From a virus (lineage: Duplodnaviria > Heunggongvirae > Uroviricota > Caudoviricetes): DNA of 14,159 nt. Position 1 is the first letter of the stretch. The number at the start of each line of letters is the position of its first letter. The translations under genes and the position numbers were made by a program. Below, piece by piece: positions 10,980-14,159 of the stretch. The notes below the pieces were generated by a model. That model worked only from the letters and a program-made list of their open reading frames with translations, was not told the origin of the DNA and searched no databases. The stretch lies in the IMG/VR virus record IMGVR_UViG_2859821903_000004, positions 1 through 14,159 of that record; one strand, written 5' to 3'.

Positions 10980-11102
10980 AAATGGAGCTATGGATATGAA
11001 CCCCATGCTTGATTATTGTTTTACACCTGCCCTCAGGCTGAGGTAGCCTGAGTTTAACGGACACTCCTTCCTGAAATAGAATGGCATCAGAAGGAGCTAA
11101 TA

Positions 11103-11405
11103 ATGAGCAGAAAAAACCAACGTTACTCTAAAGAGTTCAAAGCCGAAGCTGTCAGAACGGTTCTTGAAAATCAACTTTCGATCAGTGAAGGCGCTTCCCG
11201 ATTATCCCTTCCTGAAGGCACTTTAGGACAATGGGTTACCGCCGCCAGAAAAGGGCTCGGTACTCCTGGTTCCCGCACGGTGGCTGAACTGGAATCTGAA
11301 ATTCTGCAACTGCGTAAGGCGTTAAATGAAGCTCGCCTTGAGCGAGATATATTAAAAAAAGCAACAGCGTATTTTGCACAGGAGTCGCTGAAAAATACGC
11401 GTTAA
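11103..11405 (+). CDS. IS3-family transposase OrfA of IS600
   Basis: 100-aa ORF MSRKNQRYSKEFKAEAVRTVLENQLSISEGASRLSLPEGTLGQWV... with HTH and leucine-zipper-like segments. Confidence 0.85.
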   Translation: MSRKNQRYSKEFKAEAVRTVLENQLSISEGASRLSLPEGTLGQWVTAARKGLGTPGSRTVAELESEILQLRKALNEARLERDILKKATAYFAQESLKNTR

Positions 11406-11440
11406 TCGAACAATGGCGACAACAATTTCCCATTGAAGCG

Positions 11441-12277
11441 ATGTGTCAGGTATTTGGTGTATCCAGGAGCGGTTATTACAACTGGGTACAGCATGAACCC
11501 TCAGACAGAAAACAAAGTGATGAGCGGCTAAAACTGGAGATTAAGGTGGCACATATCCGCACTCGCGAAACATATGGAACCCGGCGGCTCCAGACGGAGC
11601 TGGCAGAGAATGGCATCATCGTTGGTCGTGACAGACTGGCACGTCTTCGTAAGGAGCTAAGGCTACGCTGTAAGCAGAAACGCAAGTTCAGAGCGACTAC
11701 GAACCCGAACCACAATCTGCCAGTTGCGCCAAATCTGCTGAACCAGACGTTCGCTCCTACAGCACCAAATCAGGTCTGGGTGGCGGACCTGACGTATGTT
11801 GCCACACAGGAGGGATGGTTGTACCTCGCTGGCATCAAAGATGTTTATACGTGCGAAATTGTCGGCTACGCCATGGGAGAGCGCATGACAAAAGAGCTGA
11901 CAGGTAAAGCCCTGTTTATGGCGCTCAGGAGCCAGCGCCCACCTGCCGGGCTAATCCACCACTCTGATCGAGGTTCACAGTACTGCGCATACGATTACCG
12001 GGTCATACAGGAGCAGTCTGGTCTGAAAACATCAATGTCGCGTAAAGGTCACTGTTACGACAACGCTCCGATGGAAAGCTTCTGGGGAACGCTGAAAAAT
12101 GAGAGCCTGAGCCACTATCGTTTTAATAACCGGGATGAAGCCATCTCAGTAATACGGGAATACATTGAGATTTTCTACAATCGTCAGCGTCGTCACTCTC
12201 GTCTGGGGAATATCTCCCCGGCAGCCTTCAGGGAAAAATATCATCAGATGGCTGCTAAAAAAAAGAACAAATGGTAG
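11441..12277 (+). CDS. IS3-family transposase OrfB (DDE catalytic domain) of IS600
   Basis: 278-aa ORF with WVADLTYV..., HSDRGSQY..., CYDNAPMESFWGTLK motifs, in the -1 frame relative to orfA. Confidence 0.85.
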   Translation: MCQVFGVSRSGYYNWVQHEPSDRKQSDERLKLEIKVAHIRTRETYGTRRLQTELAENGIIVGRDRLARLRKELRLRCKQKRKFRATTNPNHNLPVAPNLLNQTFAPTAPNQVWVADLTYVATQEGWLYLAGIKDVYTCEIVGYAMGERMTKELTGKALFMALRSQRPPAGLIHHSDRGSQYCAYDYRVIQEQSGLKTSMSRKGHCYDNAPMESFWGTLKNESLSHYRFNNRDEAISVIREYIEIFYNRQRRHSRLGNISPAAFREKYHQMAAKKKNKW

Positions 12278-12299
12278 TGTCCGCTATTGCCAGTACACC

Positions 12300-12767
12300 T
12301 CACTTGTCATGCAGCTCCACCGATTTTGAGAACGACAGTGACTTCCGTCCCAGCCTTGCCAGATGTTGTCTCAGATTCAGATTATGTCGCTCAATGCGCT
12401 GAGTGTAACGCTTGCTGATAACGTGCAGCTTTCCCTTCAGGCGTGATTCATACAGCGGCCAGCCATCCGTCATCCATACCACGACCTCAAAGGCCGACAG
12501 CAGGCTCAGAAGACGCTCCAGTGTGGCCAGAGTGCGTTCACCGAAGACGTGCGCCACAACCGTCCTCCGTATCCTGTCATACGCGTAAAACAGCCAGCGC
12601 TGACGTGATTTAGCACCGACGTAGCCCCACTGTTCGTCCATTTCAGCGCAGACAATCACATCACTGCCCGGTTGTATGCGCGAGGTTACCGACTGCGGCC
12701 TGAGTTTTTTAAGTGACGTAAAACCGTGTTGAGGCCAACGCCCATAATGCGTGCACTGGCGCGACAT
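12300..12767 (-). pseudogene. insB: IS1 InsB frame, C-terminally truncated; its stop codon is supplied by the IS600 terminus
   Basis: Ends ...SVELHDK, about 12 codons short of the first copy (...[19 protein letters not shown]). Bases 12300-12302 belong to the IS600 end. Confidence 0.7.
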
Positions 12768-13016
12768 CCGACGCCATTCATGGCCATATCAATGATTTTC
12801 TGGTGCGTACCGGGCAGAGAGGCGGTGTAAGTGAACTGTAGTTGCCATGTTTTACGGCAATGAGAGCAGAGATAGCGCTGATGTCCGGCAGTGCTTTTGC
12901 CGTTACGCACCACGCCTTCAGTAGCGGAGCAGGAAGGACATCTGATGGAAATGGAAGCCACGCAAGCACCTTAAAATCACCATCATACACTAAATCAGTA
13001 AGTTGGCAGCATTACC
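12303..13016 (-). mobile_element. IS1 copy, inverted, missing about 54 bp of its insB-proximal end where it abuts IS600; a different IS1 isoform from the copy at 9271-10038
   Basis: The insA-proximal terminal repeat is present at 12994-13016 (reverse complement GGTAATGCTGCCAACTTACTGAT). The other end stops at ...GCTGCATGACAAG, directly against the IS600 end. The InsA/InsB proteins differ at several residues from the first copy. Confidence 0.85.
12686..12961 (-). CDS. insA: IS1 InsA (second copy, variant sequence)
   Basis: 91-aa [43 protein letters not shown]... Confidence 0.85.
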
Positions 13017-13055
13017 CCATTGCTGGCATAAATTCAGTTTCGAATATTCAGTTAA

Positions 13056-13297
13056 TTAAAGTTCGTGTGCCATCTTGTCTTTTTCGGCACAAGCTGCACC
13101 GCAATATTTTCGTTTCTTTCTGGCAATCATGTTTCCATGCATATAAATAAGCTCGCCAGTAAAAGCTTTTTCAGGTAAAAACTGTTTATTGCAGAGATGG
13201 TAATCACATTGTATTAAATCCGGGTCACCTTTTTGCTGGAGAATTTTTCTGATTCTCCACAGCCATTTTTTAATCCCGGTATGACTGATGGTCTGCC
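13056..13297 (-). pseudogene. C-terminal fragment of an AT-rich, Cys-containing protein of unknown function, cut at its 5' side by the second IS600 copy
   Basis: Open minus-strand frame from the IS600 boundary to the stop at 13056 (...QQKGDPDLIQCDYHLCNKQFLPEKAFTGELIYMHGNMIARKKRKYCGAACAEKDKMAHEL). About 80 stop-free codons in AT-rich DNA argues for real coding sequence; the ORF-track start at 13313 lies inside the IS. Confidence 0.35.
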
Positions 13298-14159
13298 TGA
13301 GGTGTACTGGCAATAGCGGACACTACCATTTGTTCTTTTTTTTAGCAGCCATCTGATGATATTTTTCCCTGAAGGCTGCCGGGGAGATATTCCCCAGACG
13401 AGAGTGACGACGCTGACGATTGTAGAAAATCTCAATGTATTCCCGTATTACTGAGATGGCTTCATCCCGGTTATTAAAACGATAGTGGCTCAGGCTCTCA
13501 TTTTTCAGCGTTCCCCAGAAGCTTTCCATCGGAGCGTTGTCGTAACAGTGACCTTTACGCGACATTGATGTTTTCAGACCAGACTGCTCCTGTATGACCC
13601 GGTAATCGTATGCGCAGTACTGTGAACCTCGATCAGAGTGGTGGATTAGCCCGGCAGGTGGGCGCTGGCTCCTGAGCGCCATAAACAGGGCTTTACCTGT
13701 CAGCTCTTTTGTCATGCGCTCTCCCATGGCGTAGCCGACAATTTCGCACGTATAAACATCTTTGATGCCAGCGAGGTACAACCATCCCTCCTGTGTGGCA
13801 ACATACGTCAGGTCCGCCACCCAGACCTGATTTGGTGCTGTAGGAGCGAACGTCTGGTTCAGCAGATTTGGCGCAACTGGCAGATTGTGGTTCGGGTTCG
13901 TAGTCGCTCTGAACTTGCGTTTCTGCTTACAGCGTAGCCTTAGCTCCTTACGAAGACGTGCCAGTCTGTCACGACCAACGATGATGCCATTCTCTGCCAG
14001 CTCCGTCTGGAGCCGCCGGGTTCCATATGTTTCGCGAGTGCGGATATGTGCCACCTTAATCTCCAGTTTTAGCCGCTCATCACTTTGTTTTCTGTCTGAG
14101 GGTTCATGCTGTACCCAGTTGTAATAACCGCTCCTGGATACACCAAATACCTGACACAT
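13298..14159 (-). mobile_element. Second IS600-like copy, inverted relative to the first, running off the window end
   Basis: Reverse complement of the IS600 right end (TGAGGTGTACTGGCAATAGCGGACAC) starts at 13298. The orfB product (13323..14159) is identical to the first copy's OrfB in the ORF track. Confidence 0.85.
13323..14159 (-). CDS. IS600 OrfB transposase (second copy); the upstream orfA lies beyond the window
   Basis: 278-aa ORF identical in translation to ORF 11441..12277. Confidence 0.8.
   Translation of the reverse strand: MCQVFGVSRSGYYNWVQHEPSDRKQSDERLKLEIKVAHIRTRETYGTRRLQTELAENGIIVGRDRLARLRKELRLRCKQKRKFRATTNPNHNLPVAPNLLNQTFAPTAPNQVWVADLTYVATQEGWLYLAGIKDVYTCEIVGYAMGERMTKELTGKALFMALRSQRPPAGLIHHSDRGSQYCAYDYRVIQEQSGLKTSMSRKGHCYDNAPMESFWGTLKNESLSHYRFNNRDEAISVIREYIEIFYNRQRRHSRLGNISPAAFREKYHQMAAKKKNKW

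Follow-up and report, generated by a model that had tools for sequence, protein, structure and literature searches.

How did two identical insertion sequence (IS) copies come to lie in opposite orientations in phage DNA, with apparently truncated genes at their edges and no evident target duplication at any junction? The question is raised by a viral genome record (IMG/VR IMGVR_UViG_2859821903_000004, Caudoviricetes), of which positions 1 to 14,159 were analyzed (hereafter the window, 14,159 nt). From position 10,980 onward the window holds two inverted copies of IS600, an IS1 copy that seems to lack one end, and remnants of the small phage gene ydaE. An original prediction, drawn from the sequence alone, had taken the junctions as marks of IS-mediated deletions and/or inversions. 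The locus very probably records three events in a decaying lambdoid (Rac-like) prophage, namely two IS600 insertions followed by a recombination that flipped the 995 bp between them. The inversion proposed earlier therefore stands, as 995 bp lie reversed relative to the ancestral order, whereas the deletion does not, since no sequence has been lost at any IS600 junction (0/4).

Positions and strands of the elements are given in window coordinates. The window is an exact match inside chromosome CP026839.1 (offset 139), in which the sequence beyond the window was read. Loci of related genomes are labelled L002–L025, L025 being the locus of CP026839.1.

Target Duplications and Interrupted Sequences

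A repeat scan of the window recovered two inverted pairs, one of 862 nt at 100% identity (11441-12302 / 13298-14159), formed by the two IS600 copies, and one of 713 nt at 92% identity (9271-9983 / 12304-13016), formed by two IS1 copies, here termed IS1a and IS1b. Perfect repeats of 862 nt together with 713-nt repeats at 92%, all within 14 kb, cannot be attributed to chance. IS600 copy 2 extends 402 bp past the window, to window-equivalent 14561 in CP026839.1, and no mismatch separates it from copy 1, either over the 862 nt in the window or over all 1264 nt in CP026839.1.

The claim that no junction shows a target duplication does not hold. Read in IS orientation, both IS600 copies are flanked by GGC and CTT, copy 2 having GGC on the right and, beyond the window, CTT on the left, and the matching halves of each duplication sit on different copies. 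The GCC at 13295-13297, which is GGC in the orientation of the gene and the IS, is the second copy of the target duplication of the first IS600. The CTT at 12303-12305 (AAG on the IS1 strand, IS1 positions 712-714) is one copy of that of the second. Target duplications, which the original prediction had itself named as evidence that would turn against its reading, are thus found on re-inspection at both IS600 copies, and also at IS1a.

A prediction set beforehand concerned the missing part of IS1b, and it held: past the far end of copy 2, CP026839.1 reads AAG-GTCATCGGGCATTATCTGAAC...GTCATTACC, which is the missing 54-bp IS1 tail. The second AAG and the remaining 54 bp of IS1b occupy L025 14423-14479, and the re-joined IS1b measures 768 bp, with three mismatches to the uninterrupted IS1b of L013. 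Since this tail lies beyond copy 2, the "truncated" IS1b is an IS1 split by IS600.

The same holds for the phage gene. The short gene start after rha is indeed cut at 11038, as had been noticed, although its ATG lies at 10990 rather than at about 10995; this junction of the rha–ydaE 5' side with IS600 is the same in 10 related loci. The second IS600, inverted relative to the first, is likewise present as described, at the Cys-rich fragment. When 10990-11038 is joined to the reverse complement of 13056-13294, with one GGC dropped, a clean open reading frame (ORF) of 95 amino acids (aa) results. Its DNA agrees with the intact gene of Escherichia coli VL40 at 325/327 nt, straight across the junction to the IS1b start, and its protein is identical at 93/95 residues to the VL40 "YdaE family protein" (95 aa), which is encoded directly after rha in an uninterrupted Rac-type prophage. 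The reconstructed protein scores 81.5 bits against NCBIfam YdaE_coli (cut-off 35). The 39-nt spacer is collinear with VL40 up to the exact start of IS1b, and an identical left flank is present in L013. Because the two parts re-join cleanly and match the intact gene, the two truncated genes seen at the IS edges are halves of one ydaE (Table 1).

Table 1. Window coordinates of the IS elements, the parts of ydaE and the segment between the IS600 copies.
Feature	Position	Strand	Description
IS1a	9271..10038	+	Complete 768-bp IS1; simple insertion, private to the CP026839.1 genome
ydaE 5' part	10990..11038	+	Codons 1-16 plus 1 nt; GGC at 11036-11038 is one target-duplication copy
IS600 copy 1	11039..12302	+	Complete, 1264 bp, IS3 family; left flank GGC, right flank CTT
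Inverted segment	12303..13297	.	995 bp: IS1b 1-714, 39-nt spacer and ydaE 3' part, between inverted IS600 copies
IS1b	12303..13016	-	IS1 positions 1-714 of 768 bp; last 54 bp absent here; second isoform
Spacer	13017..13055	-	39 nt, 3' of ydaE to the IS1b left-end insertion point
ydaE 3' part (Cys-rich fragment)	13056..13297	-	Codons 17-95 plus stop
IS600 copy 2	13298..14159	-	Element positions 1264 down to 403; leaves the window

Ancestral and Parallel States in Related Genomes

Comparison of the junction flanks with related genomes, as the original prediction had recommended, recovered the ancestral single-IS order. It is found in at least six genome arrangements (L013, L014, L015, L017, L018, and L022), where a lone IS600 sits in ydaE with GGC on both sides and is followed on the same strand by the 3' part of ydaE, the 39-nt spacer and a complete IS1b. 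Neither IS1a nor the IS600/IS1b junction is present in these six loci. Polarity is fixed by outgroup genomes that encode an identical 279-aa Rha ORF product next to an uninterrupted 95-aa ydaE, and the un-inverted order is therefore seen both in relatives (the single-IS state) and in the outgroup (intact ydaE). AKNG01000014.1, reached through a look-up of the 181-aa Rha, carries the same ydaE::IS600 junction and an empty IS1a site. Many finished chromosomes, among them CP000036.1 (Shigella boydii Sb227), encode the product of the ydaE 3' fragment ORF, the start of which falls within the IS600 end.

The derived arrangement is far more restricted. A look-up of the junction-spanning InsB fragment placed the IS1b::IS600 junction in CP026839.1 only; the remaining matches from look-ups of the 155-aa and 85-aa truncated InsB products are IS1 genes that end at contig edges and are uninformative. 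A megablast search of complete E. coli genomes with 10040-14159 returned no record with at least 80% coverage, and the arrangement is absent from that collection.

Simple IS600 insertions in the relatives carry plain 3-bp duplications (GGC/GGC and CTA/CTA). In L020, an exchange of ends between ydaE::IS600 and another IS600, inverted and about 7 kb upstream of it, turned the flanks TGA/GAT and GGC/GGC into TGA/GGC and GAT/GGC; it is an inversion of the same kind that arose independently. Larger rearrangements are seen at the same ydaE::IS600 in L021 and L016, where the rha–ydaE 5' side is no longer nearby. Nesting goes one level deeper in L002 (10943/10944) and L019, where an IS66-family element has split ydaE::IS600 itself behind element position 338. 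In L013, the IS600 flanked by the CTA duplication (6383-7474) has lost about 172 bp internally and measures just 1092 bp; its L014 orthologue is full length.

Proposed History and Alternative Explanations

The history that best fits these states would begin with an old insertion of IS600 into ydaE, just 3' of rha, duplicating GGC; ydaE::IS600 is common to many related genomes, as is IS1b 39 nt downstream of ydaE. A second IS600, in the opposite orientation and about 1 kb away, would then have entered IS1b at positions 712-714 and duplicated AAG. This step would be confined to the lineage of the CP026839.1 genome, and the second element was probably copied from the first. Finally, homologous recombination between the identical inverted 1264-bp copies would have turned around the 995 bp that separate them. 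Such a crossover, falling within the IS600 copies, would swap their ends, leaving each copy with one flank from each insertion. Because the IS ends are exchanged in this way, ydaE and IS1b look truncated at the IS edges though no base has been lost. The locus shows duplications exchanged between the copies, interrupted sequences that re-join across the inversion, and a segment bounded by long inverted repeats (1264 nt, no mismatches, 995 nt apart). From these we infer the order of the events, the derivation of copy 2 from copy 1 and the action of RecA-type recombination, rather than transposase, in the last step. Both window copies carry A595 and A1219, while C595 and T1219 are found in 11/11 other IS600 copies compared, which include the orthologous ydaE copy of relatives. 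The shared pair would fit copy 2 as a local daughter of copy 1, or homogenization of the two by gene conversion.

Certain observations weigh against this history. The un-inverted intermediate with two IS600 copies was found in no genome examined, and the final structure is also the exact product of one-step replicative intramolecular transposition, so that the structure alone is no proof of recombination. In such a reaction, the ydaE copy of IS600 would transpose replicatively into IS1b and generate the second copy, an inverted AAG duplication and the inversion at once; its product, A-GGC-[IS]-CTT-inverted segment-GCC-[inverted IS]-AAG-C, is what is observed, and the identity of the two copies, including their private variants, agrees with it as does the lack of an intermediate. 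IS3-family elements such as IS911, IS2, and IS3, however, transpose via a circular intermediate, by copy-out-paste-in, and this yields simple insertions and no replicative inversions. The other IS600 copies examined indeed have plain 3-bp duplications, and the ydaE copy in L020 exchanged ends with an IS600 that is already at that site in relatives, which is recombination. A single-reaction origin is accordingly judged unlikely; if true, it would be unexpected for an element of a family thought to move only by copy-out-paste-in.

The orientation also comes from a single public assembly and needs reads longer than about 3.5 kb across both repeats. The 995-bp segment could have been misplaced by the assembler, or the population could be mixed, with the true or majority orientation un-inverted. 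Short reads cannot orient a segment between perfect inverted repeats of 1264 bp, the four short-range junction sequences are by reasoning identical in both orientations, and one assembly only carries the structure. Yet CP026839.1 is a finished 4.27-Mb chromosome, implying long-read data, and comparable IS600-bounded inversions occur in other finished genomes (L020 and L021). An artefact is judged slightly less likely still than the one-step route. The reading given first to these junctions, that the rest of ydaE and one end of IS1 were lost to IS-mediated deletions, so that no target duplications remain, has almost no probability left. In its favor are the differing flanks (GGC versus CTT) seen when each IS600 copy is viewed singly, and a true loss of 1,773 bp next to the right end of IS1b, though outside the window. 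It is refuted by the re-joining of ydaE to the intact gene and of IS1b to its full length, and by the presence of both duplications once the ends are cross-paired. Two further candidates were rejected: a composite transposon, as the outer flanks GGC (11036-11038) and AAG (L025 14423-14425) share no duplication, and a site-specific invertase switch, as each repeat is a complete IS element and an invertase gene is absent from the segment and the DNA next to it.

The IS600 pair (1264 nt, identical, 995 nt apart) is a good recombination substrate, and continued flipping is plausible; a milder alternative to the one-step reading would have the segment still flip often enough to be measured in culture. 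Inversion between IS1a and IS1b, which the original prediction had also entertained, would be much less likely. This pair is a poor substrate because its identity is only 92% and its longest identical run is 101 bp, and the intact 9-bp duplication of IS1a means that no exchange between IS1a and IS1b has been fixed. Since ydaE and IS1b are disrupted in either orientation, the inversion has no evident functional consequence.

The IS600 and IS1 Elements

Both IS600 copies are 1264 bp long, with left end TGAGGTAGCCTGAGTTTAACGGACAC and reverse-complemented right end TGAGGTGTACTGGCAATAGCGGACAC, which form imperfect terminal inverted repeats of the TG...CA kind. In copy 1, orfA spans 11103-11405 and orfB ends at 12277, with an A7G slippery run at 11354-11361 within the overlap of the two. 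They are joined by a predicted -1 programmed frameshift, and an IS600 copy of 99.5% identity carries the annotation "programmed frameshift". Pfam domains are HTH_Tnp_1 in orfA and HTH_21, rve and rve_3/rve_2 in orfB, and the orf product reaches 332.6 bits against NCBIfam transpos_IS3 (cut-off 160). The element is 99.5% identical to the annotated "IS3-like element IS600" of E. coli VL40, and its identity to copies that RefSeq E. coli genomes label "IS3-like element IS600 family transposase" is 99.2-99.5%. Length and termini, the orfA/orfB domains, the 3-bp duplication and near-identity to the named element all assign it to IS600.

The description of the IS1 copies in the original prediction was accurate: IS600 copy 1 adjoins an IS1 without about 54 bp of one end (IS1b, positions 1-714), which is inverted relative to the intact IS1 at 9271-10038 and is another isoform. 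The two share 92.2% identity (60 mismatches over 768 nt). Each type has counterparts of 99.9% identity or more in E. coli genomes, for which RefSeq annotation gives no isoform names, just "IS1 family transposase". Pfam Zn_ribbon_InsA, HTH_Tnp_IS1 and DDE_Tnp_IS1 and NCBIfam transpos_IS1 are the domains matched. In IS1b, insA is intact (12686-12961) and insB is cut, its ORF (12300-12767) running into IS600. Both IS1a, as it stands, and IS1b, when its parts are put together again, have the IS1 length of 768 bp. The 9-bp target duplication of IS1a, TGGGTGGGA, is perfect and lies at 9262-9270 and 10039-10047, and the IS1a site is empty in L002, L013-L015, L017-L020, and L022. IS1a also lies between the arms of an inverted repeat of 22 nt that match perfectly (AAGTGAATTTTGTGATGCGGTG with its complement, 9186-9207 / 10096-10117); once IS1a and one duplication copy are taken out, 111 nt would remain between these arms, which would stand immediately upstream of isrK.

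In none of the genomes examined is IS1b flanked by a 9-bp duplication. On the left it abuts CAGCAATGG, and on the right TGGAATCGG in L013 and GACAGCGCG in the window genome, with the right flank differing again in L016 and L018. The missing duplication and the variable right flank indicate that the right end of IS1b has been rearranged repeatedly and is a hotspot. It is beside this end, outside the window, that the sole real deletion is placed by comparison with L013: IS1b there adjoins an integrase fragment equivalent to L013 12839 (L025 14480 onward, window-equivalent 14619), and 1,773 bp (L013 11066-12838) are missing, which in L013 hold a 147-aa ORF, an IS3-family element and part of int. 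This loss may have come about by recombination with another IS1 instead of by a transposase-mediated deletion.

Other Features of the Window

An ipaH-type gene with LRR_TTSS and NEL domains occupies 1-1763 (+) and is split into ORFs at 1-564 and 711-1763. Together with the IS load, this gene marks the source genome as apparently of Shigella or enteroinvasive E. coli type. A further IS3-family element lies at 2354-3567 (+), with ORFs of 108 and 296 aa and an ALIL frameshift pseudoknot (Rfam, 116 bits) at 2635-2751, in its orfA/orfB overlap.

Upstream of ydaE, two Rfam matches at gathering level, the Hfq-binding small RNA isrK at 10191-10267 (+; 64.7 bits) and the C4 antisense RNA at 10292-10379 (+; 78.6 bits), fall inside the 279-aa "Phage_ASH + Rha" ORF call (10140-10979). 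More probably, rha begins at the ATG at 10434, giving the 181-aa product called in GCA_000268105.1, in which case isrK, C4 and an antirepressor would form a module like the immI of P1/P7.

Comparison With Known Systems

IS1 classically promotes adjacent deletions. IS1b is like such cases in its missing 9-bp duplication, its varying right flank and the 1,773 bp absent relative to L013, but unlike what had been expected for this locus, the deletion is outside the window and at none of the junctions that were listed for it. The layout of two identical inverted IS copies around a short segment, 3,523 bp in total, also recalls Tn10 and Tn5. Here, however, the outer flanks derive from ydaE and IS1b, and the other half of each is enclosed between the IS copies; with outer flanks that do not match and the remaining gene halves inside, the IS-segment-IS structure did not arrive as a unit. 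Compared with IS600 itself, the window copies are alike in length, domain set, A7G run and 3-bp duplications, at 99.5% identity, and differ in nothing essential, though they share the private substitutions A595 and A1219.

The locus is a small, cleanly reconstructed case of an IS rearrangement that is already known in kind. Its biological weight is small, given known elements, a documented IS-rich genome, and ydaE and IS1 that are broken in both orientations. It does carry a caution for annotation, in that apparent truncations at IS edges can be halves of one gene or IS parted by an inversion, and cross-pairing the 3-bp flanks of inverted IS copies quickly resolves such cases.

The closest parallels are the IS-bounded inversions of Shigella and E. 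coli, in which identical inverted IS copies likewise bound the segment (PMC8072062; PMC7373316; for Shigella flexneri, PMC1550401). IS1 and IS600 are among the five IS elements expanded in all Shigella species, whose reference chromosomes each hold 229-348 IS copies (PMC7373316), and inversions ordinarily arise by recombination between inverted repeats, with 103/114 reconstructed inversions falling on Shigella branches (PMC8072062). The present locus shares with these the exchanged target duplications, the IS1- and IS600-rich Shigella-type genome (with ipaH in the window) and the reuse of an IS copy, as the same ydaE::IS600 took part in another inversion in the relative L020. It differs from them in that the segment is just 995 bp, whereas those studies used synteny blocks of 5 kb or more, and in that it lies wholly in dead prophage DNA with one breakpoint inside another IS. 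It provides a fully reconstructed case in which one IS entered another, IS600 into IS1, before a very short inversion, one below the block size of the published synteny surveys.

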